Source of the DNA: Rhodospirillaceae bacterium
GTDB taxonomy: Bacteria > Pseudomonadota > Alphaproteobacteria > Rhodospirillales > Rhodospirillaceae
Direction: 5' to 3'
Assembly: GCA_040221475.1 (NCBI GenBank)
Contig: JAVKEJ010000053.1
Span: 648,918 to 712,917, forward strand
DNA length: 64,000 bases
Part shown: positions 8,855-56,723 of the stretch, piece after piece
Layout: each line of letters begins with the position of its first letter
Numbering within the stretch: position 1 is the stretch's first letter
The notes under the pieces: generated by a model
Databases searched by the model: none
What the model was told of the DNA's origin: nothing
What the model saw: the letters and a program-made list of their open reading frames with translations, nothing else
Position numbers and translations under genes: made by a program

Positions 8855-9706
8855 ATGAAAAGAAGAACATTGCTCAAGTCTATGGTAGCCCCATTTATTA
8901 TAGGGGCTTCTGCAACTATACTTCATTCACGCCTTTCCGCAGCTGCGACACCCCCCCTTCTCGACCCGAACAATCCTGATGATCTCTATGTCATTCATCG
9001 CAAGTTGAACTATCGGTTCGATACCGGTTTAGTGTTTTGGTATATACAAGCTGTTCGTAATGGTTTGGTCGACAGCGCGTTCACACCATTTTGGAATATG
9101 GACGTCGGTTTTATTGCAGCTGTACGCGACTTAGATGACACGCGATACGAAGTCAAAACCATGAGTGCTATTTTTTATACAGATCTCGAAACCGGCAAAC
9201 TCATCGATAGTTTCGATAATCCCTATACCGGTCAAAAGATTCCCGTTCGCCAACCAACTCTTAGCGTTTCAGCCCGAGCGCACAACAAAACAGGACTCGA
9301 AGCGCGCCCCCCGCGCCCTGGTGTGGAGATGAAAGAATATGGTGATATCGGACCGGCTTGGGTGATTGGCGATGATGTCTGGTGTCAGGCAGACACCGGC
9401 TTTCGTATCGAGGCAAATGATGAGCGTCCGCAACCGACACAAGTGAACGACTGGTTCACCTACCATGGTTCGATCTCTGAGGTGTCAAATCCTAACGTCC
9501 AAAGTGCACAGGCAACTCAAAACTTCAATGACATCAATACTTGGCCCGCCTGGCTCAACATGGGAGATCACCCAGGCAACTACGTTTCTCGTGGTTTTGG
9601 CCGAAAAGTCGCAAGCATGTCAGCAATGCCAGAATCATGGCAAAAGCTTATGAAGAAACACTACCCAAAAGAGTTCGCTGATCCTCAATCAATAATTGAT
9701 GGATAA
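8855..9706 (+). CDS. DUF1838-family protein with twin-arginine (Tat) leader
   Basis: The internal start MKRRTLLKSMVAPFIIGASATIL...SAAA fits an RR signal (the track ORF starts at 8804). The body aligns by eye with the two other DUF1838-like ORFs in this window. Confidence 0.65.
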   Translation: MKRRTLLKSMVAPFIIGASATILHSRLSAAATPPLLDPNNPDDLYVIHRKLNYRFDTGLVFWYIQAVRNGLVDSAFTPFWNMDVGFIAAVRDLDDTRYEVKTMSAIFYTDLETGKLIDSFDNPYTGQKIPVRQPTLSVSARAHNKTGLEARPPRPGVEMKEYGDIGPAWVIGDDVWCQADTGFRIEANDERPQPTQVNDWFTYHGSISEVSNPNVQSAQATQNFNDINTWPAWLNMGDHPGNYVSRGFGRKVASMSAMPESWQKLMKKHYPKEFADPQSIIDG

Positions 9707-10690: not shown

Positions 10691-11929
10691 TTAAAATCGT
10701 GAAGTCTTTTTCATACCAATGACCGTCACAATAATCGCAATTTGGAACACACCTGCTATCAAGAAGACTTGAGCTGCTTGGCCTACATCCAACAACCAGC
10801 CAAATACAAATGGCGCGATAACACCGCCAACATTAAGCCCTGTGGACACGAACCCAAAGACGGTTCCCATCGCATCCTTTGGGGTCACCGAACGCACCAG
10901 TAAATCCCTCGACGGAGCGGTTACGCCTGAAGCCAAGCCGGCGATGCACATCGCAAAAATGATCATGACAATCGTCATATCTAAGAGACCCATAGATAGA
11001 ATCGCTATGCCAGCCGCGATCGTTCCCCAGATCGCGATTAAATCATGACGGGAGGTTTTATCGCTTAGAATTCCGCCAATCAGAATACCGGCGCTGCTTG
11101 CGGCCAGAAACGCCGTAAGGGCTAGATTCGCAGTTGCCAAAGGCATTTCATACATTTGGTCAAATGCTGAAACAGAGAAATAGGACACGCCGACATGGGC
11201 CACCGAGATGAAAAGCCAAAAGACAAAGCCCATCAGGATCGGAAGTGATAGCAACAGGATCGCCGTGCTTTTCAGAGACGGAATTGTTTTCACAGAGGGT
11301 GTGCCGTTTTCATGTTCTACAATTTCCTCGGCAAGCAAAGCCCCATTCATCTGTAATACGCCAGCCACCAGAAGCCCCGCGACGCCGACATAAATCACGG
11401 CGGCGTTCCATCCTAACGATGCAGCCAAAGCCACCATAGTCAGTGGCGCTAACGCGCTGCCCCCAAACCCCGATAACGTATGCATGCTAAAGGCCCGCCC
11501 CATCATATGGGGCGCAACAGCGCGGTTAAGGATAGCGTAGTCTGCTGGATGATAAACTGCATTCGCCAGGCCAGCTGGAACCATCATGGCAAGCAAAACC
11601 CAATACGATGGCACCAGCCCCATCACGATCAAGGCTAGACCTTGCAGGGCGACGGCTCCGGTCAACAGCTTTGGCGCATCAAGCCGGTCAACCAGCATCC
11701 CCATTGGCAACTGGGTTGCGGCACTGACAAGGTTAAAAACCACAATCAGAACGCCCAATTCGGTATACGTCACCGATAAGTCATCGCGAAGAAGCGGAAA
11801 CAAAGGCGGCAGCACAAAAAAGAAAAAATGGCTGTAAAGATGCGCAAAACTCACCAATCCGGTCACCTTGACACTTTTTGTCGTTGGTGGCCCCGCGTGA
11901 TGAGGCAAGCTGGCCCCAGTTTCTGTCAT
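10691..11929 (-). CDS. MFS transporter
   Basis: 412 aa, about 12 hydrophobic segments, typical MFS loop motifs. Confidence 0.8.
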   Translation of the reverse strand: MTETGASLPHHAGPPTTKSVKVTGLVSFAHLYSHFFFFVLPPLFPLLRDDLSVTYTELGVLIVVFNLVSAATQLPMGMLVDRLDAPKLLTGAVALQGLALIVMGLVPSYWVLLAMMVPAGLANAVYHPADYAILNRAVAPHMMGRAFSMHTLSGFGGSALAPLTMVALAASLGWNAAVIYVGVAGLLVAGVLQMNGALLAEEIVEHENGTPSVKTIPSLKSTAILLLSLPILMGFVFWLFISVAHVGVSYFSVSAFDQMYEMPLATANLALTAFLAASSAGILIGGILSDKTSRHDLIAIWGTIAAGIAILSMGLLDMTIVMIIFAMCIAGLASGVTAPSRDLLVRSVTPKDAMGTVFGFVSTGLNVGGVIAPFVFGWLLDVGQAAQVFLIAGVFQIAIIVTVIGMKKTSRF

Positions 11930-11946
11930 AACGATGCCGTCATCAT

Positions 11947-13203
11947 CTAGTTATCAGCCAGTGCTTGTCTTACGTCCGTAATGGGTGTGCCGAGAAACAA
12001 CACAAGTGCTGTCACCGTCACTGTGGCCCCAAAGGCAAAGGGAAGCCAAGGTATAAATTGATACAGCGCCGCCCCGGTTGCTGGCGCGAATAGAAAGGCT
12101 ATGGCTTGACTAGAGGTCGATATACCCGCCAGTCGTCCTTGTGCCTCCGGGCCAGCTGCTAAAGATAGCGATGTATTAATTGCTGGCATAGAAAACCCCT
12201 GTCCTAATCCATTACAGATCATCGCAAACACAAACATGGTTTGAGTTGTTCCAAACCAAACCAGCCCGATCGAGATAAGCGTAATACTCACGCCCATGAC
12301 AATGTAGGTTTTAGCGCTCTGATTCAGCCGCCGTATAAGAAATGCCTGCACGAATACGTTTGAAGCCGCAGCGCACATCAACCCCAACCCCATGGCCTGT
12401 GCCGCCGCAATGGGTTCAAGACTAAATCTGTCCTGAACAAAAAAACCAATGACAGAGAATGTACCGTAGGTTCCGCACATAAAACACACAGAACTGATTG
12501 CAATTCGCAGAATAGGCCCCTTAAGAAGATGGCGGTATTTCACGGCTACGTTGGCAGCACTGGACCGTGTTTTCGGTAAAAAAATGCGGGATGACATCAC
12601 TGCAATGCACCCTGCTCCCCCAATGATATAGAACGGTGCCGACAAACCGAAACCAGTAAAAAAGGCTGATACAGACGGACCGATAATTGCGCCGGTGCTG
12701 GTGGCTGCCGTTAACATTGATATCGCACGGAGCCGATGTTCCCGGGACGACATATCTGCCGCCAATGCCATGGCAGACGGCGTCACGGCCCCCGCTCCCA
12801 AGGCAAATAAAGCTCTGGACCCAACAAGCAACCACAACATCATTATACCGGTAATGAGTCCGCTAATCGCGGCATCCACAATCAGACCAAACATGACCAC
12901 GGAGACCACGAATACGATCCCGCCTATGACAATAACGCGCCGCCTGCCCCAGCTTTCACTCAAAGCCCCCCACATCGGTCCAGTAAACAGCATAAAAAAA
13001 CCATGAACCGACATCACCAAACCAATTTGATAGTCAGCCATACCAACTTGACGCCCGATGGGTGGCAGTATCGTGAACAAAAAAGCCTGGCCCACGATCA
13101 TGATCATCACCGCGTAAAATAAAGTCACGCTGACTTTTAAGGGCAACACGCCGTCTGTGGGGAAATTGGGTGGCGGACTTGGGATCGGAGACGTCACGGG
13201 CAA
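11947..13203 (-). CDS. MFS transporter
   Basis: 418 aa, multi-pass. GPMWGALSESWGRRRVI matches the MFS loop 2-3 motif (G-x3-D/S-R/K-x-G-R-R). Confidence 0.8.
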   Translation of the reverse strand: MPVTSPIPSPPPNFPTDGVLPLKVSVTLFYAVMIMIVGQAFLFTILPPIGRQVGMADYQIGLVMSVHGFFMLFTGPMWGALSESWGRRRVIVIGGIVFVVSVVMFGLIVDAAISGLITGIMMLWLLVGSRALFALGAGAVTPSAMALAADMSSREHRLRAISMLTAATSTGAIIGPSVSAFFTGFGLSAPFYIIGGAGCIAVMSSRIFLPKTRSSAANVAVKYRHLLKGPILRIAISSVCFMCGTYGTFSVIGFFVQDRFSLEPIAAAQAMGLGLMCAAASNVFVQAFLIRRLNQSAKTYIVMGVSITLISIGLVWFGTTQTMFVFAMICNGLGQGFSMPAINTSLSLAAGPEAQGRLAGISTSSQAIAFLFAPATGAALYQFIPWLPFAFGATVTVTALVLFLGTPITDVRQALADN

Positions 13204-15254: not shown

Positions 15255-15965
15255 ATGAAGAATTTAAGTCACATTTTCCTCGTTACCATTTGCAGTATCC
15301 TGCTCGGTATTTCCACTCTGGCACAAGCTCAAGACAAACCTGGCTTTCTATTTGTCAACGCCACAGTTACCGACTTTGAAAAGCTCGGCGTTTATGGCCG
15401 TGCTCTCCCCCCCGTTTATGCAAAATACGATGGTATTTATAGAATCTTTGGTGGCATCGGTCGTGGCGTTGAGGTTCTGGCTGGCTCCGCCATGCATGAG
15501 TCTGTGATATTCGCAGAATTCAAAAGTTTGAAAGACGTCGAAACGTTCTGGTGGTCGGACGAATATCGGGCCGTCTTTCCATTACGCGAAGGCGCAGGCA
15601 TCTTTGATGTGGTGGGCCTCGCAGGCACCGGAGAACAACCTTATTCCGCCGAAAGCGGCATTCAACCAGCTTATATGTTTACCTTGGTAACCGTTAAAAA
15701 CCCTGAGAAAACCCAAGCTTATATGGAAGCAACCTCAGACTTTACTGCAAATGCTCCAGGACGTTTAATCGCTCTCGCACGCCCTGCTGATATGTCTATT
15801 CTGGAAGGGCCGAAGCCTGAGCATACGATTGAGATCACTTCATGGCCAAGCGTGCAGGCGATTAAATCTTATCTATCTGATCCAGAATTCACAAAAGTGA
15901 ACGCCCTGCGTGAAGAAGCTATGGACTTTACAGTCATGGTCGCCGAAGTGCCAAAACCAAGATAG
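15255..15965 (+). CDS. Secreted protein with two tandem DUF1330 (Dabb-fold) domains
   Basis: Sec-type leader MKNLSHIFLVTICSILLGISTLAQA. Two repeats carry the DUF1330-like pattern (..VIFAEFKSLKDVETFWWSDEYRAV.. and ..IEITSWPSVQAIKSYLSDPEFTKV..). Confidence 0.6.
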   Translation: MKNLSHIFLVTICSILLGISTLAQAQDKPGFLFVNATVTDFEKLGVYGRALPPVYAKYDGIYRIFGGIGRGVEVLAGSAMHESVIFAEFKSLKDVETFWWSDEYRAVFPLREGAGIFDVVGLAGTGEQPYSAESGIQPAYMFTLVTVKNPEKTQAYMEATSDFTANAPGRLIALARPADMSILEGPKPEHTIEITSWPSVQAIKSYLSDPEFTKVNALREEAMDFTVMVAEVPKPR

Positions 15966-15973
15966 CGTCTGAT

Positions 15974-17176
15974 CTAAACCCAAGCTCCAAAGACAAACCA
16001 GCTTGCGCCATTACCATGCTTAGGCGCATCAACTCTACCGTCTATGAACGCTGCAAACTTATCTGCACCAAATGAACTGTAATTCGGAATAAGTGCCTGA
16101 ACATATTTACCTGATTGAAATCCAGCACCTTGACATAGGGCCTTGATATCTTGATTGCGGAATTCTGCATAAAACGGCTCGTTGTTGTTAGAACCAGTAT
16201 CCCAATCCAAATAAAACCCATAATACGGGTCAACTACAGAGTTAGGTGGCAATTCCATATGTATCATCAGTCCACCTGGGCGTAAGACACGGCGGGCCTC
16301 TGCAAAAATGGCCTTGGTCGATTTAACAGGCAACTCATGTAGAAAGAAACTTGAGGTGACGATGTCGAAGCTGTTGTCATCAAACTCTAGATGTTCGGCA
16401 TCTTGCTGAGAAAAGTGTACAGCGCGCCCTTCGTGGGAGGCGACCGCATGTCCGAAACGCAACAGCGGTGCACCGACATCAATGCCATAGGCTTCAATAT
16501 CAGGATACTCATCTAAGTATGGAAACAGGTTCTTCCCCGTGTTGCATCCTAGATCAAGAATACGCTTTGGCGCAAATTCAGGGTGCTTGAGTTTGAGATA
16601 GCGGGCGATGGATTGCCCGACACCACCTGGGTTTCCTTTACGATGCCTGAAGCCACCGCGAAAGACATCTCCGCCGAGGACTTGCACAGCACCTTGCGCC
16701 ACGTCGTCTGACGTGTGCTCCGTATGAAAACAGCCTGGCATGAGATGAACATCCATCGCAGAAACGTATCTGGGTATTTCAAGGTTGGGATTGAGTCTGA
16801 GGGAACCGCCTGCGGGGTTCATATCGGCGGCAACACGCGCTACTTCAATCATATCCGGCAAAGCCCGTTCAACACTCTCTTGCACGGATGCCCAGACCAT
16901 TTCTTGCGCATTATATCGAATAGAACTCCACATGCGGTAAAGCATGTTTTGCTCCATCGCTTTCTTCACGTCACGGGGCGTCTTGGGTTCCGCGCCATAT
17001 ACTTTAAGATAATGCGGTTTTATATGATCTTCGTACTCTTGCCGCATGGTGGCGGACATATTCACCATGACGTGTTTTCGTAGGGCACTGACGAACGCTT
17101 GGCGAGACTCTTCCCCTTGAGTCGTCCGGACCAAGGCAGAAATGTCACTCAGAACAGCTACACCTTGATCCGGCAT
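15974..17176 (-). CDS. Class I SAM-dependent methyltransferase-like protein, leaderless paralog
   Basis: Motif I ILDLGCNTGKN, acidic motif YGIDVG, FDIVTSSFFLHE, LRPGGLMI. About 190-aa helical N-terminal domain. Distant paralog of the next two ORFs. Confidence 0.75.
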   Translation of the reverse strand: MPDQGVAVLSDISALVRTTQGEESRQAFVSALRKHVMVNMSATMRQEYEDHIKPHYLKVYGAEPKTPRDVKKAMEQNMLYRMWSSIRYNAQEMVWASVQESVERALPDMIEVARVAADMNPAGGSLRLNPNLEIPRYVSAMDVHLMPGCFHTEHTSDDVAQGAVQVLGGDVFRGGFRHRKGNPGGVGQSIARYLKLKHPEFAPKRILDLGCNTGKNLFPYLDEYPDIEAYGIDVGAPLLRFGHAVASHEGRAVHFSQQDAEHLEFDDNSFDIVTSSFFLHELPVKSTKAIFAEARRVLRPGGLMIHMELPPNSVVDPYYGFYLDWDTGSNNNEPFYAEFRNQDIKALCQGAGFQSGKYVQALIPNYSSFGADKFAAFIDGRVDAPKHGNGASWFVFGAWV

Positions 17177-17202
17177 AGGAGACGCCTTTAAATTTTAATG
17201 GC

Positions 17203-18402
17203 CTAGGTTTTCTTAACGCCCATCAAATTATAACGACTACGCCAGGCAGGCGGTCCTTCGCGTGTGACCTCGAAACCCGCATCAGCCATAACTTTGGGGA
17301 AATCAAAGCGGGCATACTCTTCACGCCAAACTTCCTCATTCCAGCGATGATCTTTCCACTGCGAGTAACGAATGTAAGCTGTGTTGGCAGAAGACGCTGA
17401 ACCAGTCAGAAAATCAATGGGAAAGAAAACGCCACCGGGTCTTAAAATACGGTGGACTTCGGTCGTGACTAATTTTGATATTTGTTCCGGCAACTCATGA
17501 TGAAGAATGTAAGATGCCACAATGTCAAAATGATTATCAGGGAATTTTGAATCCTCTGCCATGCGTTGTGCAAAATTTACATCAATGCCTAACTCTGCGG
17601 CGCGCATGTGTCCGTAGCGGACCATAGGCCCGCCGGCATCAATGCCCCACACCTCAGCACTTGGAAAACGCTCTTTGAGTGCGACCGCCAACTGCCCAAT
17701 ACCACATCCAATATCAAGGATGCGCATTACTTTACCGTCTGGGGGTTCCGGCACTTGGCTGCCTAACCGGGTATGCAATTCATCCTGATAATTTGTCAGC
17801 TTACGGCCGTTATAGAAATTATTCGTGCTGTAGTGATAAATATGGCCCGCAAACGGATTGCCGACATAGCCACCGGGCTGCGTGTGAATTTCATAGCGGG
17901 CGTACTCTGGGATTTCCATGTCCGGGTTCAATTCCAAGGTCCCTGGACCCTGCCCATCAAAGGCTTCCATTTCTGCCAAGTAGACTTCAGCATTACTCTT
18001 AAACTCAGTATCAAAGTTGCGATGCATAACATCATGCACACCAGTTCTATAGCGAGCCTCCATGCCTAAAATATGATCGCCTTCAATGGCGGCAAAGATA
18101 TCTTCCATTGGTGTATCAGGAGACTCCGGATCAATTCCGGCCTTAACCATCAAGTCATCGAAGCGCTTTCTTGCGGCGGGTAGAGCGCGATCACTCCCCC
18201 AGGTTCTATAGCCCGTGAGAAAGTCATCTCGGCTCTCGACATCTAAATTCGCGAGACGCTCCAGTCGGCCGCGCGTGCCTCGAGGTTCGTTATCGAAGTC
18301 AAAAGAGCCTGATGCGGCGGATGCTGATCGACCTTTCAGCATTGAGGACGCAATACCCCCTAACCCAGCAAGAGCAGAAAACACAGTGCGACGGTTAGTC
18401 AT
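17203..18402 (-). CDS. Class I SAM-dependent methyltransferase-like protein with twin-arginine leader
   Basis: MTNRRTVFSALAGLGGIASSMLKGRSASAA leader. Motif I ILDIGCGIGQ, WGIDAGG, FDIVASYILHHE, LRPGGVFF. Confidence 0.75.
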   Translation of the reverse strand: MTNRRTVFSALAGLGGIASSMLKGRSASAASGSFDFDNEPRGTRGRLERLANLDVESRDDFLTGYRTWGSDRALPAARKRFDDLMVKAGIDPESPDTPMEDIFAAIEGDHILGMEARYRTGVHDVMHRNFDTEFKSNAEVYLAEMEAFDGQGPGTLELNPDMEIPEYARYEIHTQPGGYVGNPFAGHIYHYSTNNFYNGRKLTNYQDELHTRLGSQVPEPPDGKVMRILDIGCGIGQLAVALKERFPSAEVWGIDAGGPMVRYGHMRAAELGIDVNFAQRMAEDSKFPDNHFDIVASYILHHELPEQISKLVTTEVHRILRPGGVFFPIDFLTGSASSANTAYIRYSQWKDHRWNEEVWREEYARFDFPKVMADAGFEVTREGPPAWRSRYNLMGVKKT

Positions 18403-18416
18403 ATTTTATCTCCGGT

Positions 18417-19622
18417 TTATGCTGGCTTGGTGCCATAAATATTGCGGTTGCTATACCACGCGGGCGAGCCCTCTTTATTAACGTCAAATCCTGCGCGCTC
18501 CATATCACCTGCGAAGTCCATATCTTTATATTCTATGCGCCAAACTTCATTGTTCCAACGATGGTCTTTCCATTCTTGATACTGTGAGTAAGCCCCAGGC
18601 ACGCCCCGTCGACCACCAGTGTAGAAATCAATGGGGAAATAAATCCCACCGGGTCTCAGAATCCTATTAGCTTCCTTGAAAATCGCACGTGACACGTCCG
18701 CAGGCACTTCATGGTGAACAATGTAACTCGCTACAATATCAAAGTGCCCTTCAGGGAACTTAGTATCTTCTGCCAGACGTTGAGCGAAGTTAACGGCAAC
18801 ACCCTGATCAACAGCACGCATATGTCCATAGCGCAACATCGGGCCACCAACATCAACACCCCAGACCTCAGCATTCGGGAAGCGCTCAGCCAGAGCCACG
18901 GCGAACTGCCCTAAGCCACAACCGATATCCAGGATACGCTTCACGTCTTTACCGTCTTCGGGAACGGGCAGTTGCTCAGCCAAGCGCGCATGATGCTGGT
19001 CTTGATAATTGTCCGTCGCACGCGCCGAATAAAATGCGTTTGTGCCATAATGATACAAGTGGCCAGCGAACGGATTTCCGACATACCCACCAGGCTGCAT
19101 GTGTATTTCGTGCTTGGCATAAGTTGGAATATCCAGACCAGGATTTAGCTCTAAAGAACCCGGTCCAATCTTGTCGTAATCTGCCATCTCATCCAGATAG
19201 GTGTCCGCATCATCGGCAAAGGCGTTATAGAAATTCTTATGCGCGAAGCGCTGGCTATAAACCCGCATTAACCCTTCAGTGCCAACCACATGATCATCCG
19301 CTATGATCTCGTGAATTTTCTCCATCGGCAGTTCTTCGCTGGGATCATGACCACTGGCAGCAAGAACTTTCTCAAACCGTTCTTTTGCAGCACGTTGTAC
19401 CGTCGAACCCCGCCAATTTCGAAACCCTGTGAGAAAGTCATCACGCCCTTCAGCATCCAAAGTCGGAAGGCGCTCTAAACGACCCAGAGCTCCACGTTTT
19501 TCAACATCTGGCAAGGTTACAGGTGTTGACGTATTAGCAGCCGCTTTCCGGCCCGTTAGCGCAGTGCTAATGGCTGTCGTCAAGCCAGCGGCGGCACCAA
19601 ACAAAGTGCGGCGTTCCAACAT
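18417..19622 (-). CDS. Class I SAM-dependent methyltransferase-like protein with twin-arginine leader
   Basis: MLERRTLFGAAAGLTTAISTALTGRKAAA leader. Motif I ILDIGCGLGQ, WGVDVGG, FDIVASYIVHHE, LRPGGIYF. Close paralog of 17203..18402. Confidence 0.75.
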   Translation of the reverse strand: MLERRTLFGAAAGLTTAISTALTGRKAAANTSTPVTLPDVEKRGALGRLERLPTLDAEGRDDFLTGFRNWRGSTVQRAAKERFEKVLAASGHDPSEELPMEKIHEIIADDHVVGTEGLMRVYSQRFAHKNFYNAFADDADTYLDEMADYDKIGPGSLELNPGLDIPTYAKHEIHMQPGGYVGNPFAGHLYHYGTNAFYSARATDNYQDQHHARLAEQLPVPEDGKDVKRILDIGCGLGQFAVALAERFPNAEVWGVDVGGPMLRYGHMRAVDQGVAVNFAQRLAEDTKFPEGHFDIVASYIVHHEVPADVSRAIFKEANRILRPGGIYFPIDFYTGGRRGVPGAYSQYQEWKDHRWNNEVWRIEYKDMDFAGDMERAGFDVNKEGSPAWYSNRNIYGTKPA

Positions 19623-19802
19623 AAGAAATCTCCCTATTCACGTTTTTCCTAGTATAGCGCCATTTATAGACTTGCGCGACCAATCTGGATGGACAAACGT
19701 ACATTGTGTGAACACGCGAATAATCAACACCTCTATTCACGGCCTCAAACAAGAAAAACTGATAAGTTTCAGATAGTTGGTTGATAACCAAAGAGACCAC
19801 AT

Positions 19803-20603
19803 ATGATACTTTTGCCCACCCCAAAATTGATCGAGACAGAGAATCCCGCTCACCTGGATTTTCTTCACCGCAAAATCCTGTACGCGCTAGATGATCGCCC
19901 GGTCTATTGGTGGAAACGGGGCACAAAATATGGCGTGGTCAATGGCGAAGCCAAGGCTATGTGGAATATGTGGGTGTTTTTTGTTCAGCGCGTTCTTGAG
20001 CACCGTTCAGATCGTTTTGATGTGACTTCACTCGAAGCCGTCTACCTTACCGATCCTGACACCGGTGACGTATTGGAAAACTGGTACAATTTCTACACGG
20101 ATCAAAGACTGCCCGTTCCAGGTCAACTCATGGGGCCAGAAACACAAACTTTTCTGAGTGATGGCAGCAGCATTGCATCCAGCCCCCTGCCCGGCCTCGA
20201 CATTAAACGTAAACATACTCTCGGCCCCGCGACTATTGTTGGTGATGATCTTTGGTTTTCATTTGACTCATCTGCCATCGTCACACGGTCACGAGACGGA
20301 GAAGAAAAGCGATTCCGGATCAATGACCTGGAAACCTTTAATGCTAAGGTCAGCGATGTTCTTGACCCAGATGTATTAAGCGCGCCGGCCAGTGCAACGC
20401 TCCATCTTATCTCAAGCTGGCAAGGCTGGCTCGGCATGGAGGGTTATCCAGGTAGTCAGGTGACACGATTGGTGGCGCGCAAGGCATTTCAATTTGATAA
20501 CATTCCGGATGAACTGCAGCAGATCATGCACCGCTATCACCCTGAAATAGCTTCTGACCCTGTCTCATCCTTAGATCGCAGCCCAGAAAGCTTTGAAGAC
20601 TAG
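19803..20603 (+). CDS. DUF1838-family protein, leaderless paralog
   Basis: 266 aa with no signal. Shares blocks with the other two copies (e.g. ..DP.TG.....F.NPYT/NFYTDQ..PV.., GDD.W.., W.GW..M.G.PG). Confidence 0.6.
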   Translation: MILLPTPKLIETENPAHLDFLHRKILYALDDRPVYWWKRGTKYGVVNGEAKAMWNMWVFFVQRVLEHRSDRFDVTSLEAVYLTDPDTGDVLENWYNFYTDQRLPVPGQLMGPETQTFLSDGSSIASSPLPGLDIKRKHTLGPATIVGDDLWFSFDSSAIVTRSRDGEEKRFRINDLETFNAKVSDVLDPDVLSAPASATLHLISSWQGWLGMEGYPGSQVTRLVARKAFQFDNIPDELQQIMHRYHPEIASDPVSSLDRSPESFED

Positions 20604-21562
20604 TCTTCGATATCTCGTGCGACACGGAAGCCAAAGCCGGTTCCAGTTGTCGTGGCTAGAATACGCAGGCGCGTCGCCGGTCTCAGCAATCCAGGAAAGC
20701 CCGCCCAAGAACCGCCTTTCGCAACCCAAGCGCGGCAACTGCGCTTTGAAAAGGGTTTACCATCGCGGGGAATATCTTGATGCGTTTCTTCATAACAGTC
20801 AGCGGTCCATTCAGAGACATTGCCTGCCAAGTCATAGAAACCAAATGGATTTGGCGCGAAGCTTGCTGTCGGTGATGTGAAGACATAGCCATCATCGCAG
20901 TCTGCATATTGACCATATGGAATATCTGGAACATTAGGAACAAAGCTCAAATCAGCACCATTCTGATAGCTGCAAGCATTCGTCCATTCCTCACCCCAAA
21001 AAGTGGCCTGGGTTGCCGATGTTTGTCCGGCACGCGCGGCGTACTCATACTCAGCCTCGCTGGGAAGACGATACGACTGTCCCGTCTTCTTAGACAGCCA
21101 GTTGATATAAGCGAGAATGGCAGCACGGCGCACACAAGCAACAGGATGATCATCAGTCACCTCGAAGCCTGGATCCTGCCAATTTAACTTTGGTTGCACC
21201 GACCAACCTGAACTCGTCAGATGAAAACATCCAGGCTTAATTTTATAACCAGTGTCTTCAATAAACTCTGCAAACTGACCATAGGTTACTTCCATTTGCC
21301 CTAAGGCGAATGACGATGCAAAAACCACCTCAATCCGTGGACCTTCGTTCGCAGACATCCGATCAAGCATTTGCCATCGTCGGCCTTCTTCTTGATCGGC
21401 CCCGATGGTCACACTTCCCGGCGGCACCTCAATCATCACTGGGCATGTTTCACAGTCTTTGAAGGTGTTTCTTTCAGCCGCGACAATGGGCACGCCACCC
21501 ATAACGAAGAAAAGCAAACAAACACCTAGAATTGAACGAAAAACGATTTTCAAAACTACCAT
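20600..21562 (-). CDS. FGE-sulfatase (SUMF1/EgtB/PvdO) family protein with N-terminal signal/anchor
   Basis: Family blocks ..MEVTYGQFAEFIEDTGY.., HPVACV, YRLPSEAEYEYAARAG, NPFGFYDLAGNVSEWT, KGGSW, GFRVARD. Start taken at ATG 21562 (MVVLKIVFRSILGVCLLFF...), which overlaps the stop of the upstream SDR ORF (ATGGTAG). Confidence 0.8.
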   Translation of the reverse strand: MVVLKIVFRSILGVCLLFFVMGGVPIVAAERNTFKDCETCPVMIEVPPGSVTIGADQEEGRRWQMLDRMSANEGPRIEVVFASSFALGQMEVTYGQFAEFIEDTGYKIKPGCFHLTSSGWSVQPKLNWQDPGFEVTDDHPVACVRRAAILAYINWLSKKTGQSYRLPSEAEYEYAARAGQTSATQATFWGEEWTNACSYQNGADLSFVPNVPDIPYGQYADCDDGYVFTSPTASFAPNPFGFYDLAGNVSEWTADCYEETHQDIPRDGKPFSKRSCRAWVAKGGSWAGFPGLLRPATRLRILATTTGTGFGFRVARDIED

Positions 21563-22095
21563 GACTGAAGACGCCCTTTCCAATCGAGGAAAACGCTACT
21601 CTGCTCCGGGGTCAATTCGTCAATAACCGTGACCATGCCATCAACACTCTCCGATGGAGACCTAAAGTCCGGAACATCAAATTCTTCTAGTTTCTCAACT
21701 TTTACGCCTCCGGGGTGAAGGCTTGCGACAATTATACCGTCTGGTGCAGTTGCGCGGGCGACTGTAATCATCGCCATGTTCAAGGCGGCGTTGCTGATCA
21801 AATTATCAATGGCTGTCCCGTGGTACTTATCGGCGACTTCCTGAATCATATCCAAATCACGAACGTCAATACGTTCCACCGTTACGGTATTTGGGTAGCT
21901 TTGTTGCAAGTTTGCTAGAGTTTCTGGTGTCGTCGTCCGACGGTGTGTCGCAATCACAATAGCGCCCCTCGCCGCATATTGTTTTGCAAACTCAAGACCG
22001 ATCCCACTGTTTGCGCCAGCAATGAGGACCGTTTCCGCAGATGCCGTTGACGCTAGAAGCATAAGAAAGGCACCGCCCAAATGTAATAATTTCAA
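21556..22095 (-). CDS. Short-chain dehydrogenase/reductase remnant with signal peptide; catalytic Ser-Tyr-Lys region missing
   Basis: Leader MKLLHLGGAFLMLLASTASA runs directly into the dinucleotide loop IAGANSGIGLEF. NNAG-like ISNAA then continues straight into ALNMAMI...LHPGGVKVE. No YxxxK anywhere. 179 aa, versus the ~230-250 aa I recall as typical. Confidence 0.6.
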   Translation of the reverse strand: MKLLHLGGAFLMLLASTASAETVLIAGANSGIGLEFAKQYAARGAIVIATHRRTTTPETLANLQQSYPNTVTVERIDVRDLDMIQEVADKYHGTAIDNLISNAALNMAMITVARATAPDGIIVASLHPGGVKVEKLEEFDVPDFRSPSESVDGMVTVIDELTPEQSSVFLDWKGRLQSW

Positions 22096-22207: not shown

Positions 22208-23086
22208 TTAGTTTTCGGTCTTAACCGGCTTCTGAACCGAGTCGATATAACTCGGTCCCTGATCAAACTCTGGAGAAACATCGAATACATCACTCAAGGT
22301 CCGGGCCCGCTCAATATAAGCATCATCTAAGTCATCGATAGAATTCAGCTTTGTACCTTCAAAATGCCAGATCAAATAGCCATCCACATCGGCCATATCG
22401 AGCCACCGGCTAAACTTACCTGTATACCAACCCGATGATGTCGCGCGCGCACTCTTATGAGCCTCGCTGAGAGCTTCTTCTGCTGGCGCGAAGTAAGTGT
22501 GAACTTCATAAATTGGTTTGGGTGCCACAGGCGCAAAGTTTTCCGTCAGGAACAGCCGAATGGTCTCGTTGTCCAAGCGCCAATCCAGTGAAACCGGTTT
22601 TTCCTCGTACATCTCTGGAAAACGCTGGCGCGAGATTGGGAAGTAACTACCCATAGGCGTAAAAACCTCGCCATCTTGCCGCCGCTGCATTGTAGACACC
22701 AATGGCGTTGCCCGGCCGGTGATGGGGTTAATGAACATGTCGATAAACTCACCCGTCACCGGATCAACAAAATAATTCAATGCCGATGGAAAACGCCGAT
22801 ACACACCCTCACCTTCGTTGCGCCACCACGATCTTTGAGCACCACGTGTTTGCAACAGGGGAACAACGCCGTCTTCGGTTAACGCAAACAACCTGCTTGA
22901 AGATTGCCAAACACTCTCACCATCATCCGTACGGCCCAAAATACGCACTTTAGCTTTAACTTGATTCTCCGGTGACTCTGGAAGCACCGAGACTGTTGCA
23001 GAAGCAGATTGAGACCAAATGGGGACGGCACTGGCCCCGAGCCCCAACGCGCCAATGAGTGTCGTCGCATCTCGTCGCGAAACCAT
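22208..23086 (-). CDS. DUF1838-family protein with twin-arginine leader
   Basis: MVSRRDATTLIGALGLGASAVPIWSQSASA leader. The body is collinear with the other DUF1838-like ORFs. It starts 2 nt after the stop of 23089..23895. Confidence 0.6.
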   Translation of the reverse strand: MVSRRDATTLIGALGLGASAVPIWSQSASATVSVLPESPENQVKAKVRILGRTDDGESVWQSSSRLFALTEDGVVPLLQTRGAQRSWWRNEGEGVYRRFPSALNYFVDPVTGEFIDMFINPITGRATPLVSTMQRRQDGEVFTPMGSYFPISRQRFPEMYEEKPVSLDWRLDNETIRLFLTENFAPVAPKPIYEVHTYFAPAEEALSEAHKSARATSSGWYTGKFSRWLDMADVDGYLIWHFEGTKLNSIDDLDDAYIERARTLSDVFDVSPEFDQGPSYIDSVQKPVKTEN

Positions 23087-23895: not shown

Positions 23896-24112
23896 ACTCC
23901 CGAGTCAAAGTTATAGACTGTCCTCATAGTCTCAAAGTTTAGAATACGGACCCAATTTGAGTCCCCCAACAGATAAATAATGGTTAAATACCCAGCTGTC
24001 GGGCGCATTCTAAAACCCATAAAGCCACGCTCAACATCGCCGCAACCTTAAGTACTGGCGTTAAAGCGCCATTTCAGGCATGAAAAATTCAATGACCTGT
24101 GGAAACCAAGCT

Positions 24113-24655
24113 ATGTCACAAACCATCATCGCCCTATCTAAAAGTCGGGCTCATACGTTTACTAAAACCCAAGAGCATTCTATCCGCCTGCTGGAAGGCT
24201 TGGGAGTTGAGGGAGACACCCATGCTGGAAAAACAGATCAACACCGCTCTCATGCCGCGCGCAACCCAGAGGCACCGAATCTGCGGCAGGTTCACCTCAT
24301 TCACGCAGAATTGCACGATGAGTTGAAAACAAAAGGATTTAACGTAGGACCAGGTCAAATGGGCGAAAACATTACGACCCGCGGTGTTGACCTCTTATCC
24401 CTACCCGTTGGTACGCGCTTGCATCTTGGCAAGGACGCCATTGTTGAACTGACCGGTCTTAGAAATCCATGTAAACAACTCAACACCATTCAAGATAGGC
24501 TGATGCAAGAGACTATCGAAAAGAAGCCCGATGGCACAATTGTTCGCAAGTCGGGTGTTATGTCGATTGTTATTGCTGGTGGCGACGTGTTTCTTAACGA
24601 TACTATTCGCGTCGAATTACCAGTTAAACCGCATCGGGCGATGGAGCCGGTTTAG
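24113..24655 (+). CDS. MOSC domain protein (YiiM-like)
   Basis: GVEGDTHAG...GQMGENITTRGVDL...GLRNPCKQLN motifs. Start set to MSQTIIAL (ATG 24113). The track start is 24080. Confidence 0.75.
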   Translation: MSQTIIALSKSRAHTFTKTQEHSIRLLEGLGVEGDTHAGKTDQHRSHAARNPEAPNLRQVHLIHAELHDELKTKGFNVGPGQMGENITTRGVDLLSLPVGTRLHLGKDAIVELTGLRNPCKQLNTIQDRLMQETIEKKPDGTIVRKSGVMSIVIAGGDVFLNDTIRVELPVKPHRAMEPV

Positions 24656-25745
24656 TTTTATTTAAGGCCAGCTTCTTCCACCACAGCCAAGCACCGGTCA
24701 CAAACAAAAACGGCATAATCAATCCAGACAATAAAACGATAAATCGCCCAAAGTTCCCCAATACTTCTCCGGAATGAATGGGAAAAGCCCAATCTTCCGC
24801 AAGGGCTAACCCAACCAACTCATCGGAGTTCCTGATCGCAGTCACGCGGCCCGTATGGCGCTCGAAGAAAACACGGTTCAAGGCACGGACGTTGGCATTA
24901 CCCGTATCCAAAAAGGTCACAACCACAATGCTGCGTGCTAAGCGGATGTAGCTTAGATCCCGGATCGGGTCATTGGGGAATCTTTCACGCGCAACTTCAA
25001 TTAAGGAATCAATCGGAACAGACTCACCTGAATGATCTGCGGACGCTCCTGCGGCTGCAAAAACACCAAAGCCACCAGAGTCATCAAGTTTGATTGAGGG
25101 CAGTGTGAGCAATCCGAAAATCATCTTTCCTGACAAAGCGACTACAAACAGTAAGAGAAATGCATACGCGCCACTGACGCGATGGAGGCCGAATAAAAAA
25201 CGGCGTAACGGCCTTCTCTTTATCGCAAGTGCCTGCTTGAAAGTTTCACGGCGAGGCCACCATAAATACAATCCCGACGCACTCATTAACATCATGATCA
25301 ACGCACCCGCATGTACGGCATTGATGCCCGGCGTTCCGGCAGAAACTTGCTCATGAAGTCTGAACATCAGCTCAAAAGGATACTCATATTTACTCCCCCA
25401 TCCTGTAATTTCACCTGTGTAGGAATTCATGCTGACATACATATTTGGTGAAGGTGCGTTATCCCACACACGAATAAAATAGGCTTCGTTAGGCTTTTGC
25501 GGAAAAACGATGCTCAGGACATTATGCGGAATGTCTGGAAAAGTTTGACTGAAGGACTCGAGAACAGCCGAGATGGCCAGAAACGGCTTATTCTGCGGTT
25601 CAATCAGCATTTCTTCTGCATGCAACCAATGGTTCCCCGCATGCCGGTAGGCTACAGCCGCACCTGTAAGTCCCTGAAAGGCCAAAAATAGGCCAATGAC
25701 TAGACCGCACCATAAGTGCACTTGAAACAGTACTTTCCGCAGCAT
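24624..25745 (-). CDS. PepSY-associated TM helix domain membrane protein
   Basis: N-terminal FQVHLWCGLVIGLFLAFQGLTGAAVAY signature, further TM segments, C-terminal IHSGE..G......L.G motif. The 3' end overlaps the MOSC gene by 32 nt (convergent). Confidence 0.7.
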   Translation of the reverse strand: MLRKVLFQVHLWCGLVIGLFLAFQGLTGAAVAYRHAGNHWLHAEEMLIEPQNKPFLAISAVLESFSQTFPDIPHNVLSIVFPQKPNEAYFIRVWDNAPSPNMYVSMNSYTGEITGWGSKYEYPFELMFRLHEQVSAGTPGINAVHAGALIMMLMSASGLYLWWPRRETFKQALAIKRRPLRRFLFGLHRVSGAYAFLLLFVVALSGKMIFGLLTLPSIKLDDSGGFGVFAAAGASADHSGESVPIDSLIEVARERFPNDPIRDLSYIRLARSIVVVTFLDTGNANVRALNRVFFERHTGRVTAIRNSDELVGLALAEDWAFPIHSGEVLGNFGRFIVLLSGLIMPFLFVTGAWLWWKKLALNKTKPAPSPDAV

Positions 25746-55310: not shown

Positions 55311-56723
55311 ATGATTGACCGCCGTTTTGCACTTACAGGGCTCGCGGCTGCCGCTGGCGCTGCAACCTTTGGTAAAACATCAACCGCTGTCGCGGCGACA
55401 AACAATGCCGCTGTCGCGGCGACAAACAATGCCGCAGCAGCCAGCTCAATTACCGCGATGGATAGACCGGTTCCGGGGCTCGGGCCGCGCATGAACATGG
55501 CCCACGCCTATAAAGTTATGGACCAGCTCAACATAGACGCGCTGATCGTTGGCGAAGGTTTGAACTTCTATCACGCAACAGGCTTTTGGCCCCTCACCCA
55601 ACGCATGGGACACGCGCCCATGGCTTTCGCCATTGTCACGCGCAACGACAGCCAGCCGGTTGCAACCGTGATGTCGGCCTTCAATTACTATTATCAACTG
55701 GCCGACGTACATAGCAGCGACGATTTTGAAGTCTACTTGTTCACCGCGCCAACCGGTGAAGTGGATGACAATGGCAATCCCATCGCGGCTCCGGTCCAAG
55801 GGTTCCGTGATCTTCAGCAAGCCGAGCTCGATCGCATCGAAATCCGTCGCACCAGCTTGGCTGACGCTGCGGCTAAAGAAATCGCGGCACAGGCGGGTGC
55901 GAAATACGCTATGAGCAAAGCCTTGAAAGACTTCGGCCTGGAAAAAGGAACTCTGGCGGTCGATCACCCCAACGTGAAAGCCCTGCTGTCTGAGGCCGCC
56001 CCGCAAGCAACACTGGTGGACGCCGACACAGCTTTGCGCCGCATCCGCCCTGTCAAATCCGACCTTGAAATTACTCTGATGCGCCAGGCGTCCGCCGCCA
56101 ATACGGAAGCAGCCCTCGCCGCCGTTCGGGCGGTGCGCGCCGGGGCCACCTATCAGGACCTGCGGTCTGTGTTTTATGCCGAGGCTGCGCGCCGTGGCAA
56201 TCGCGGGGTTTTCATGGTCATCGACCGGGTCAGCTCAGAACTTTACGATGCCCCCTTCCAAGACGGTCAGGCGTTCCTCATTGATGCGGTCAGCGAGCAA
56301 CACGGATATCATGGTGACTACGGGCGCACGGTCTTTCTGGGCGAACCCACCCGCGCTATGGCCAAAGCCACCACGGCTATGGGACAAGCATGGGATATCG
56401 TGCGCGAGTCTTTACGCCCTGGCATAACGTTTCGCGACATTATGCAAACCGGCAAAGAGGCTCTGAAGAAGATCGACGCGGATTACACCATCTCGTTCAC
56501 ACCACACAGTGTCGGCCTCTATCACACCGACCATGTTGGCAACGCGGGGGCAGCGGCGTTCCGTGAGAATCCGGTGTTGGAAAAAGGCATGATCCTGAGT
56601 GTGGATTGCCCATTGCTCGAAGCCGGCGTCGGCGGCTCCGCCCATCTGGAAGACCTGACCCTCATCACCGAAGACGGCAGCGAACCGATCCACGATATCG
56701 GCAACCAGACCATTATCGTCTGA
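55311..56723 (+). CDS. M24-family metallopeptidase (creatinase/prolidase-like) with twin-arginine leader
   Basis: MIDRRFALTGLAAAAGAATFG leader. M24 metal-ligand contexts FLIDAVSEQHGYHGDYGRTV, TPHSVGLYHTD, ILSVDCPLLE, AHLEDLTLITEDG. Confidence 0.75.
   Translation: MIDRRFALTGLAAAAGAATFGKTSTAVAATNNAAVAATNNAAAASSITAMDRPVPGLGPRMNMAHAYKVMDQLNIDALIVGEGLNFYHATGFWPLTQRMGHAPMAFAIVTRNDSQPVATVMSAFNYYYQLADVHSSDDFEVYLFTAPTGEVDDNGNPIAAPVQGFRDLQQAELDRIEIRRTSLADAAAKEIAAQAGAKYAMSKALKDFGLEKGTLAVDHPNVKALLSEAAPQATLVDADTALRRIRPVKSDLEITLMRQASAANTEAALAAVRAVRAGATYQDLRSVFYAEAARRGNRGVFMVIDRVSSELYDAPFQDGQAFLIDAVSEQHGYHGDYGRTVFLGEPTRAMAKATTAMGQAWDIVRESLRPGITFRDIMQTGKEALKKIDADYTISFTPHSVGLYHTDHVGNAGAAAFRENPVLEKGMILSVDCPLLEAGVGGSAHLEDLTLITEDGSEPIHDIGNQTIIV

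Follow-up and report, generated by a model that had tools for sequence, protein, structure and literature searches.

Bacterial SAM-dependent methylation is treated as cytoplasmic chemistry, since SAM is made in the cytoplasm and, to our knowledge, neither a periplasmic SAM pool nor a bacterial SAM exporter has been described. The locus analysed here raises the question of whether proteins with an intact methyltransferase fold are sent across the inner membrane and, if so, what they would do with SAM on the other side. It lies in a 64,000-nucleotide stretch of Rhodospirillaceae DNA (the window; contig JAVKEJ010000053.1), in which a preliminary description had picked out three head-to-tail genes, here called A, B and C in order of transcription, with gaps of 14 and 26 nt between them, an arrangement with which the list of open reading frames agrees exactly (Table 1). 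Shine-Dalgarno sequences (GGGAG for A, GGAG for B) stand 8 nt ahead of the ATGs, and a terminator scan found no intrinsic-terminator-like site in either the A-B or the B-C gap; the matches that it returned all lie inside coding sequences and are near chance in number (9, against 5.0 +/- 2.4 in shuffles). The intergenic region upstream of A is probably a promoter region shared with the divergent DUF1838 gene, and the sigma-70-like matches in it are weak and no more than expected by chance. A Rhodospirillaceae MAG encodes a protein that matches the product of gene A at 100% identity.

Table 1. Features of the A-B-C locus and its surroundings, in coordinates of the window.
Feature	Position	Strand	Description
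Gene A	18417-19622	-	401 aa; ORF; leader 1-29, conserved arm 39-52, helical N-domain ~53-222, Rossmann core ~223-398
Gene B	17203-18402	-	399 aa; Tat-leader paralogue of A; ORF
Gene C	15974-17176	-	400 aa; leaderless paralogue; ORF
A-B intergenic gap	18403-18416	-	14 nt; GGAG ahead of B start codon
B-C intergenic gap	17177-17202	-	26 nt
Divergent intergenic region upstream of A	19623-19802	.	180 nt, between A and DUF1838 gene
Motif I of A	18909-18935	-	ILDIGCGLG, glycine-rich SAM loop; alignment
Post-leader arm of A	19467-19508	-	D-x-E-x-R-G-x-x-G-R-L-E-R-L, residues 39-52
Predicted Tat signal peptide of A	19536-19622	-	MLERRTLFGAAAGLTTAISTALTGRKAAA, cleavage after AAA; read from sequence
Predicted Tat signal peptide of B	18316-18402	-	MTNRRTVFSALAGLGGIASSMLKGRSASA; read from sequence
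DUF1838 gene (context)	19803-20603	+	leaderless, divergent from A
Tat-leader DUF1838 paralogue	8855-9706	+	
Tat-leader DUF1838 paralogue	22208-23086	-	

The three products are two-domain proteins, with a helical cap and a class I methyltransferase Rossmann core. A and B share 56% identity, against 29% for A and C and 27% for B and C, which bears out the earlier view of two close paralogues and a more diverged third. The Pfam models Methyltransf_25/11 match A, B and C at 78, 74 and 77 bits, over residues ~206-330 only (in A, Methyltransf_25 at residues 230-326), and the N-terminal ~190 residues have no match in Pfam or NCBIfam. A profile-profile comparison of the A/B clade with the C clade, however, extends well into this part (probability 100%, E 1.5e-62, A 52-382 aligned with C 17-356), so that the N-domain is homologous in all three, as had been proposed; the block L.LNP...IP.Y, likewise claimed for all copies, is invariant in the three-way alignment. 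The AlphaFold (AF2) model of A (pLDDT 83.7, pTM 0.83) contains the seven-stranded sheet and C-terminal antiparallel hairpin of class I methyltransferases (strands 229-232, 252-257, 277-281, 294-300, 322-331, 380-388 and 391-398), and a Foldseek search with it returned class I methyltransferases only, many of them at probability 1.0, with 927 matches at E<=1e-3. An identity as UbiE/MenG (COQ5) was rejected: TIGR01934 requires 158 bits and the scores are 41.5, 46.2 and 60.9, the UbiE equivalog models all fall far short of their cut-offs for A, B and C, and the JGI label 'UbiE' is therefore an over-annotation. The family is unnamed and uncharacterised.

A and B begin with canonical twin-arginine leaders and C has none, as originally described. 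Both leaders combine an RR motif, a weakly hydrophobic h-region of 18-19 residues, a basic c-region and an AxA site. The RR motif reads E-R-R-T-L-F in A and N-R-R-T-V-F in B, the 18-residue h-region of A is rich in Gly, Ala and Thr, and the predicted cleavage site lies behind RKAAA in A and GRSASA in B, the next residue being N in A and A in B. The same architecture is found in 100 of the 120 closest homologues, and a leader is present in 185 of 223 members of the A/B clade, compared with none of the 131 sampled from the 3217 homologues of the C clade. A phylogeny, which the preliminary description had called for, was built as a neighbour-joining tree without support values; it places all RR-bearing representatives in one derived clade, nested in a grade of leaderless relatives of ~360 aa, and points to a single acquisition of the leader, maintained down to ~35-40% identity. 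These counts, together with the single derived clade, show that the leaders are not start-codon artefacts, and no alternative start codon occurs between the leader and the conserved mature N-terminus; the mis-called start that had been considered as an explanation is thus set aside by leaders kept clade-wide. RR leaders are found on further open reading frames of the window, and Tat-type signals are thus recurrent in the genome. From the sequence, we consider the predicted export of A and B via Tat likely.

Leader and mature protein have had separate fates among orthologues. The A leader is conserved in them (76-94% identity), and the B leader is retained in loci L025, L016 and L011, cleanly deleted in L004, L008 and L009, and, together with that of A, decayed in situ (RR to SS) in L015 and L017. 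A missing leader thus reflects deletion or decay and not a mis-called start. Despite deletion or decay, the mature proteins remain 65-81% identical, which argues that the reaction needs no co-substrate confined to one compartment. The arm that follows the leader is specific to the A/B clade, where columns D39, E41, R43, G44 and G47-L52 are nearly invariant; C-clade sequences are gapped at R43, residues 44-48 of A have a pLDDT below 50, and the arm is kept in orthologues that have lost the leader.

The SAM site is preserved on both sides of this divide. Motif I reads DIGCGLG in A, DIGCGIG in B and DLGCNTG in C, with the third Gly replaced in C, and the alignment upholds the claim that motif I, the acidic motif and LRPGG are kept in all three copies. 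In the 185 leader-bearing sequences of the A/B clade G234 is invariant, and D232, G236 and G238 predominate, G238 being nearly invariant; D257, the ribose-binding acid that ends strand 2, is D or E in all 223 A/B-clade sequences save one that is gapped there, and the position holds D in 131/131 C-clade sequences. The sole clade-specific difference in the pocket is at the adenine-N6 position (283, after strand 3), which is Leu/Met in A and B and in almost all of the A/B clade, leaderless members among them, but Asp in C and Asn/Asp across the C clade; YcgJ, also of the methyltransferase fold, has Thr there, so that proteins of this fold do not all have Asp/Asn at the site. His, Glu and Arg are prominent in the pocket (R264, H267, H304-E305, D332 and E359, plus H174 of the cap), a spatial clustering inferred from topology. 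Thirteen positions (H174, D257, R264, H267, E285, D295, H304, E305, E317, R320, R323, D332 and E359) are conserved at >=85% in both the leaderless grade and the RR clade, and most of them in the C clade too. Between grade and RR clade we found no residue change, such as a tighter SAM site, that marks a move to the periplasm; a Rossmann pocket degenerate in the exported copies only, which the preliminary description had named as a possible outcome, was not found, the pocket being the same as in cytoplasmic relatives. This conservation argues for the same chemistry in exported and cytoplasmic members, and A and B probably bind SAM or SAH. They are probably also loaded with a divalent metal: in A and B the two histidines that follow strand 4 (H303-H304) align with the His-His pair that binds metal in CysG/BelI, although H303 varies within the family and is replaced by Leu or Phe in the C clade.

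The family comprises well over a thousand predicted proteins, and in marine Rhodospirillaceae MAGs it is amplified to 16 or more copies per genome, with as many as six in one array. B orthologues directly follow A in more than 15 related loci, A-B adjacency being constant. Elsewhere, members are often paired with a novel, leaderless helical protein of 116 aa, which is absent from the operon in the window. DUF1838 genes occur in 19 of 82 related loci; further recurrent neighbours are TonB receptors, Tat-flavoproteins, Tat-glyoxalase-fold proteins, enol-lactonase-like hydrolases, tannase, VanA-like Rieske oxygenases and an ABC-type binding protein. The neighbours stand at median distances of 2-3 kb, a loose association that is in part a matter of shared synteny.

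The reading that we favour, at a probability of roughly 0.4 for the whole of it, is that A and B are exported by Tat with SAM as a retained cofactor and that C is their cytoplasmic counterpart. A and B would fold and take up SAM, and probably a divalent metal, in the cytoplasm, where they would probably also pair with each other; Tat would then export them, and the leaders of 29 residues would be removed. Once in the periplasm, they would hold SAM as a tightly bound, unconsumed cofactor and act on small anionic or phenolic organic molecules, a substrate class weakly suggested by the invariant Arg residues and the recurrent neighbours, and C would perform the same chemistry in the cytoplasm. 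The probable pairing is proposed from the adjacency of A and B and from the pattern of leader loss, the B leader being lost only where the upstream A leader is kept; co-export of A and B is not the whole story, since both leaders have decayed in two of the loci named above. A complex assembled before export, as the leaderless 116-aa partner found elsewhere would imply, would explain the use of Tat. Given export, we put the retained-cofactor mode a little short of an even chance: the idea draws on other Tat substrates that bring their cofactor along, and it runs against the prior of the fold, since almost all class I methyltransferase-fold proteins with intact motifs that we know of consume SAM. 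We favour it over stoichiometric use of a periplasmic SAM pool. By analogy with glucose-fructose oxidoreductase and its NADP, and rather improbably, the exported clade would consist of periplasmic enzymes of a new kind, with SAM/SAH bound permanently before Tat export as a methyl shuttle or electrostatic cofactor; they could carry out ping-pong transmethylation from activated external methyl donors (DMSP and other sulfonium compounds, or methyl halides) to periplasmic acceptors, or a non-methylating SAM-assisted reaction, and the 116-aa helical protein would be a co-exported subunit.

If A and B were classical multi-turnover methyltransferases acting on periplasmic substrates after export by Tat, free SAM would reach the periplasm via some exporter and SAH would be removed or re-imported. 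Their motifs and pocket resemble those of ordinary small-molecule methyltransferases, their closest solved relatives (RebM, LahSB, CysG/BelI and PMTs) are true methyltransferases, and plant Golgi pectin methyltransferases act in the lumen fed by MFS-type SAM transporters; two MFS transporter genes lie 3-6 kb from the operon (10691-13203), and genes from the same MFS clusters are found again next to a few arrays that are not orthologous to it (L042, L062 and L080). This link is weak, however, and mostly syntenic, no exported SAH-recycling enzyme was seen near the genes, and the exporter and pool on which the scheme depends are without known bacterial example. Repeated loss of the leader with no other change is easier to explain if no dedicated SAM supply is needed, and we regard the classical mode as unlikely. 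Supply would equally be dispensable if each molecule carried one SAM and methylated one periplasmic target, a single-turnover role that fits Tat export of a loaded protein and intact methyltransfer residues but would be very costly for a family at such copy numbers, and that sits badly with the same active site in cytoplasmic relatives, where turnover is expected; we give it next to no weight.

Two further readings question either export or catalysis. A and B might stay in the cytoplasm as ordinary methyltransferases, the RR segment being a cryptic, regulatory or chaperone-binding tail, as the leaderless close orthologues with intact mature proteins, the leaderless basal relatives and C clade, and the like active sites of leader-bearing and leaderless groups would allow. 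The tripartite leader (RR-x-F/L, Gly/Ala/Thr-rich h-region, basic c-region and AxA) is nevertheless kept in 185 divergent sequences and on every copy of the five- and six-gene arrays, cleanly deleted leaders are removed exactly up to the predicted cleavage site, residues 1-34 of A are disordered and detached from the fold in the model, and A and B have a single Cys each, compared with three in C, all of which makes this reading very unlikely. Alternatively, catalysis may have been lost and A and B be exported pseudo-enzymes or serve in the periplasm as ligand-binding or sensor proteins, with adenosyl or sulfonium compounds among the conceivable ligands. Solute-binding families typically show large expansions of exported paralogues, TonB receptors and an ABC-type binding protein are repeatedly found in the neighbourhood, and A/B-clade members have Leu in place of Asn/Asp at the adenine-N6 contact. 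Yet this Leu 283 is also found in leaderless relatives, the transporter components are not strictly adjacent, and the putative catalytic residues beside the methyl position (H304-E305, D332, E359, H267 and R264) are invariant in the exported clade and identical in cytoplasmic relatives; we consider such a loss of catalysis highly improbable.

The locus is thus one of a large family amplified in abundant marine alphaproteobacteria and not a local oddity. A leader acquired once and kept through deep divergence leaves one of three conclusions to be drawn: that SAM chemistry takes place in the periplasm, that exported enzymes can carry SAM along as an unconsumed cofactor, or that the fold has acquired a new use. 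Each of these, if true, extends the known scope of Tat substrates and of methyltransferase folds, with a bearing on the periplasmic handling of dissolved organic matter by oligotrophic marine bacteria; were the bound-SAM/SAH reading true, marine Rhodospirillaceae would gain SAM-based chemistry outside the cytoplasm. The family also offers natural controls, in a cytoplasmic paralogue within the same operon and in orthologues that have lost the leader. A search of the full-text literature found no description of a Tat-targeted or periplasmic bacterial SAM methyltransferase, in keeping with the preliminary description, which knew of no established case, and we found no published precedent.

Among known systems, YcgJ (1xxl), RebM (3bus) and LahSB (6uak), of the Methyltransf_11/25 type, share with A, B and C the Rossmann core, motif I, the acid after strand 2 and the E..R.LRPGG segment (profile E 1e-15 to 1e-14, core ~206-364); unlike A and B, they are leaderless cytoplasmic proteins of about 200-300 aa. 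The helical N-domain (about 170 residues) has no match in the PDB by sequence or fold, and the best query-normalised Foldseek TM-score for the A model is <=0.44. The top Foldseek match, DsyB (7wdq), combines an N-terminal helical domain with a methyltransferase core over an alignment of 387 columns, a likeness in architecture only (RMSD 14 Å, TM-score 0.43-0.50, identity 17%). Assignment to O-methyltransferase family 2 (DsyB, SibL, SgvM) was rejected, at RMSD 14-18 Å, query-relative TM-scores <=0.44 and a Methyltransf_2 score below cut-off (17.8 on B, against 22.3).

CysG/BelI are metal-dependent carboxyl O-methyltransferases with a His-His-Asp site and an N-terminal gating Arg (PMC11408123). 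By sequence and by fold they rank with the best matches (E 7e-12, at an identity of only ~22%), and they hold substrate carboxylates by Arg and His, and the A/B/C family also has invariant Arg and His. They are, however, single-domain cytoplasmic enzymes of ~215 aa from beta-lactone biosynthesis, whereas A, B and C have two domains; because of this difference, the variability of H303 and the lack of a clear counterpart of the third ligand, Asp191, we do not file A, B and C among them.

For the retained-cofactor mode that we favour, two sets of proteins are instructive. RdmB hydroxylase, LepI and SpnF have the class I methyltransferase fold and bind SAM without consuming it; with SAM used in this way, a periplasmic location would pose no difficulty. 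They are themselves cytoplasmic, belong to natural-product pathways and are of the O-methyltransferase family 2 type, and we found neither a specific sequence relationship nor common catalytic residues with A, B and C. Tat substrates, for their part, generally carry permanently bound cofactors, such as NADP in Zymomonas glucose-fructose oxidoreductase, and PvdN and PtaA are Tat-exported, pyoverdine-tailoring PLP enzymes with a non-covalent organic cofactor. The folds and cofactors of these three differ from those of A and B, none being SAM, and their cofactor is regenerated in each catalytic cycle; as in A and B, a cytoplasmic-type cofactor fold stands behind a twin-arginine leader, and they take up their cofactor ahead of export for use in the periplasm, as we propose for A and B.

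Three genes, here called A, B and C, had been described in a preliminary reading as a head-to-tail tandem of methyltransferase-fold (MTase) paralogues with small gaps, the two upstream copies close to each other and the third diverged. The open reading frames, all on the minus strand, bear this out, with 14 nt between A and B, 26 nt between B and C, and pairwise identities of 56% for A/B as against 29% for A/C and 27% for B/C. Motifs at Shine-Dalgarno position stand 8 nt upstream of the ATG of A (GGGAG) and of B (GGAG). Promoter and terminator scans of the region returned matches no more than chance, and as the terminator scan listed no intrinsic-terminator-like site in either gap, co-transcription of A, B and C is the simplest reading. 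In Pfam, the three score almost equally against Methyltransf_25/11 (78, 74 and 77 bits, respectively), with the match confined to some 100 residues in the C-terminal half. The first ∼190 residues lie outside every Pfam and NCBIfam model, and the scores against all named NCBIfam equivalogs fall far short of their cut-offs. Both resources assign generic MTase domains only. The label “UbiE” that some sources attach to close homologues is rejected as over-annotation, since TIGR01934 has a cut-off of 158 bits and is matched with only 41-61.

Features of the window and of loci with family members in related genomes
Feature	Location	Strand	Remarks
Gene A	18417-19622	-	ORF, 401 aa
Gene B	17203-18402	-	ORF, 399 aa
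Gene C	15974-17176	-	ORF, 400 aa
Protein with two DUF1330 domains, signal-bearing	15255-15965	+	Convergent with C, 8 nt from its stop; kept in syntenic loci
DUF1838 paralogues	8855-9706 (+), 19803-20603 (+), 22208-23086 (-)		Two with twin-arginine (RR) leader, one without
PvdO-like FGE-sulfatase-fold protein, signal-anchored	20600-21583	-	Conserved in syntenic loci
SDR-like ORF, Sec-type signal	21556-22095	-	179 aa; N-terminal half of adh_short profile only
MOSC-domain gene and PepSY_TM membrane protein	24080-25745		Near island, conserved in syntenic loci
Creatinase_N + Peptidase_M24 protein	55311-56723	+	470 aa; RR leader MIDRRFALTGLAAAAGAATFG...AVAA
TonB-dependent receptor	56802-59291	-	Adjoins the Creatinase_N/M24 gene
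116-aa partner, examples	L044 9625-9978; L085 6628-6984; L083 7681-8004		Directly upstream of MTase genes
Six Tat-leader MTase paralogues	L062 7444-14855		In tandem
Five Tat-leader MTase paralogues	L042 6118-12504		In tandem
A and B orthologues with decayed leaders	L015 3036-5462; L017 3609-6035		Mature proteins intact
BufA1/DUF2282 (bufferin-type) precursor	L085 8287-8619		Directly downstream of a Tat-leader MTase, followed by two SDR genes

The N-terminal sequences confirm that A and B, but not C, begin with canonical twin-arginine leaders. A opens with MLERRTLFGAAAGLTTAISTALTGRKAAA and B with MTNRRTVFSALAGLGGIASSMLKGRSASA, with cleavage predicted before an Asn and an Ala, respectively; in both, the twin arginines are followed by hydrophobic residues, a Gly/Ala/Ser/Thr-rich h-region of 18-19 residues, a basic c-region and an AxA site, which is, at the sequence level, textbook Tat architecture. 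The N-terminus of C holds nothing resembling a Tat leader. A mis-called start would leave orthologues without leaders, and we found the leaders kept. A has 1360 protein-database matches at E<=1e-5, headed by proteins from Rhodospirillaceae MAGs, including one of 100% identity, and the 120 closest homologues include 100 that carry the leader M-[LI]-[DN]-R-R-T-L-F; C has 3217 matches, with the leader in none of the sample inspected. Of 354 non-redundant sequences aligned together, the 223 homologues of A and B (the A/B clade) include 185 with an RR leader and the 131 homologues of C (the C clade) include none. The leader of A and B is thus a conserved trait and no start-codon artefact.

A search with the helical N-terminal half alone (the N-domain) against 1.84 billion cluster representatives gave only 139 matches, 80 of them at E<=1e-10, which are a mix of leader-bearing proteins of ∼390-410 aa and leaderless ones of ∼355-365 aa. 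A neighbour-joining tree of them, rooted on the C clade and without support values, places the leaderless forms in a basal grade and all RR-bearing forms in one derived clade, with a single nested secondary loss inside it; this topology suggests one gain of the leader and its retention down to ∼35-40% identity. Closer to home, orthologues of A carry the leader in six lineages (76-94% identity) and those of B in four, and the A-B adjacency is kept in more than 15 loci. In two low-GC genomes (L015 and L017, 34% GC), the leader of A has decayed in situ, with RR changed to SS and charges in the former h-region, and that of B has decayed as well, while in three others (L004, L008 and L009) the leader of B is excised exactly to the predicted cleavage site. 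In these leader-loss orthologues the mature protein is intact and 65-81% identical (65-70% in the low-GC cases). Deletion of the B leader is never seen without a leader on A; in the low-GC pair, both are decayed.

Modelled by AlphaFold from a 75-sequence alignment (pLDDT 83.7, pTM 0.83), A is disordered over residues 1-34, followed by a helical domain (helices 55-149) and a Rossmann core of seven strands (229-398). For the core, Foldseek and searches with PDB profiles gave generic class I methyltransferases only, and neither PDB sequence profiles nor Foldseek yielded a structural relative of the N-domain; DsyB aligns end to end but at an RMSD of 14 Å, and was discarded. That all three proteins share this domain, as had been proposed, follows from a profile-profile comparison of the two clades (A 52-382 with C 17-356, probability 100%, E 1.5e-62). 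The SAM-binding motifs ascribed to all three are likewise present in the alignment: motif I (D-x-G-C-G-x-G), the acid after strand 2 (D257, numbering of A throughout) and E..R.LRPGG are conserved, in exported members no less than in cytoplasmic ones.

Pocket degeneracy restricted to the exported copies, which would recast them as binding proteins, was looked for and not found. The sole clade-specific difference lies at the adenine-N6 position, as read from a gapless alignment with the Methyltransf_11 consensus, where the A/B clade has Leu/Met versus Asn/Asp in the C clade. Leu283 was considered as a sign of lost SAM binding in the exported copies and rejected, because leaderless A/B-type relatives have Leu there too and YcgJ has Thr. 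In the leaderless grade and in the RR clade alike, thirteen residues (H174, D257, R264, H267, E285, D295, H304, E305, E317, R320, R323, D332 and E359) reach a conservation of 85% or more; most of them are invariant in the C clade as well. The pocket yielded no residue signature that would mark a shift from cytoplasm to periplasm. H303-H304 fall, in the alignment, on the His-His pair that binds metal in the carboxyl O-methyltransferases CysG and BelI, in which a divalent ion is held and substrate carboxylates are bound by Arg and His (PMC11408123). This alignment makes a metal-assisted reaction on an anionic substrate plausible but unproven.

A one-genome-per-species scan found at least 476 relatives. 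Of the 80 best loci, nearly all come from Rhodospirillaceae or Alphaproteobacteria MAGs of marine and lake origin, two of which supply 12 and 9 separate loci with at least 16 and at least 17 genes; single MAGs carry 16 or more copies at 12 or more loci. The longest tandem arrays have five and six members, each with its own leader. In 33 of 82 loci, a gene for a ∼116-aa protein lies 13-60 nt upstream of the MTase gene. This protein has 128 homologues only, is modelled as a helical hairpin, belongs to no Pfam or NCBIfam family, has no fold match and is absent from the 64-kb window. As it also precedes leaderless A/B-type MTase genes, once with a 4-nt overlap, it was rejected as a Tat-specific chaperone and is better described as a partner of the enzyme. 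One protein of 494 aa (P0404) resembles a partner-MTase fusion but contains translated intergenic sequence, an RR leader in its interior and a frameshifted C-terminus; it was set aside as an artefact of read-through or frameshift, which an error in assembly or sequencing probably produced. Locus L085 has two partner-MTase modules, with a TonB receptor and a LysR regulator encoded in between.

Among the neighbours of family members, enol-lactonase-like α/β hydrolases are found in 31 loci, DUF1838 proteins in 19 of 82 (many with RR leaders), TonB receptors in 17, family-5 binding proteins in 14 and Tat-leader FAD_binding_2 flavoproteins in 11 (median distance 113 nt), alongside Tat-leader glyoxalase-fold proteins, signal-bearing SDRs, tannase and VanA-like Rieske oxygenases. 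These associations, which are loose and partly shared synteny, hint at periplasmic handling of aromatic or carboxylated organics. In the window, the operon region is chromosomal, with mfd, recG, gyrA and uvrA further along, and its other neighbours include a response regulator, an α/β hydrolase and two MFS transporters. The DUF1838 trio around it mirrors the exported/cytoplasmic split of the MTases; DUF1838 has no PDB relative and gets only passing mention in the papers that name it. The FGE-fold protein has as its best NCBIfam match PvdO, a periplasmic pyoverdine enzyme (185 bits over the full length, below the cut-off of 500), and PepSY_TM proteins include siderophore-associated reductases. 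The SDR-like ORF and the PvdO-like gene overlap by 28 nt at their 5' ends; in the syntenic locus L001, the equivalent position has no called gene, and the ORF may represent a remnant. Signal-bearing SDRs of full length occur repeatedly near other MTase paralogues. The creatinase/M24 fold, like the MTase fold, is normally expected in the cytoplasm, so that RR leaders occur on more than one normally cytoplasmic fold in this genome.

Export, ligand and substrate are predictions, and the mechanism is one we infer. Judging from their leaders, A and B would fold in the cytoplasm and be exported by Tat (a probability of roughly 80%). That they are not exported at all is an unlikely alternative; for it speak the orthologues in which the leader has gone, against it the leader kept across most of the A/B clade. 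A and B are likely to bind SAM or SAH, and their cofactor, and probably the metal too, would be loaded before export, the two proteins probably travelling as a pair. For other paralogues, the leaderless partner would co-travel with its enzyme, which would by itself explain the use of Tat rather than Sec. The cytoplasmic version of this chemistry would fall to C; that C merely hitchhikes on A and B is unlikely, as the C clade is large and usually encoded apart from A/B-type genes.

The conserved pocket does not differ between cytoplasmic and exported lineages, and a leader can be lost while all else stays as it was; both facts suggest a reaction independent of any co-substrate confined to the cytoplasm. 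Because the reaction seems compartment-independent and Tat substrates are known to hold cofactors permanently, we tentatively favour, at slightly under even odds and given export, that A and B keep SAM as an unconsumed cofactor. Classical stoichiometric methyl donation, with SAM supplied via a putative export route, agrees with the intact motifs but is less likely; single-turnover use of SAM is a further, improbable alternative, as is a non-catalytic role, against which speaks the undegenerated pocket of the exported copies.

By fold and motifs, A, B and C are assigned to the class I methyltransferase superfamily, and they differ from UbiE/MenG, from O-MT family 2 (DsyB type) and from the CysG/BelI family, of none of which they are members. 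Full-text searches gave nothing relevant as literature precedent for a Tat-targeted or periplasmic bacterial SAM methyltransferase, and no counterpart with the same features has been described, as far as we found; the combination comprises a new N-domain, a Tat leader present clade-wide, massive amplification in few genomes and a dedicated small partner. At the level of sequence, the preliminary reading is supported, with strong evidence that an intact SAM-binding fold bears a conserved export signal, which would surprise a specialist. Tat-exported enzymes with organic cofactors include GFOR with NADP, and PvdN and PtaA with PLP, and RdmB, LepI and SpnF are SAM-dependent enzymes that do not consume SAM. 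Taken as leads only, these two groups, the one exported with its cofactor and the other leaving SAM unconsumed, are the closest functional analogies to A, B and C.
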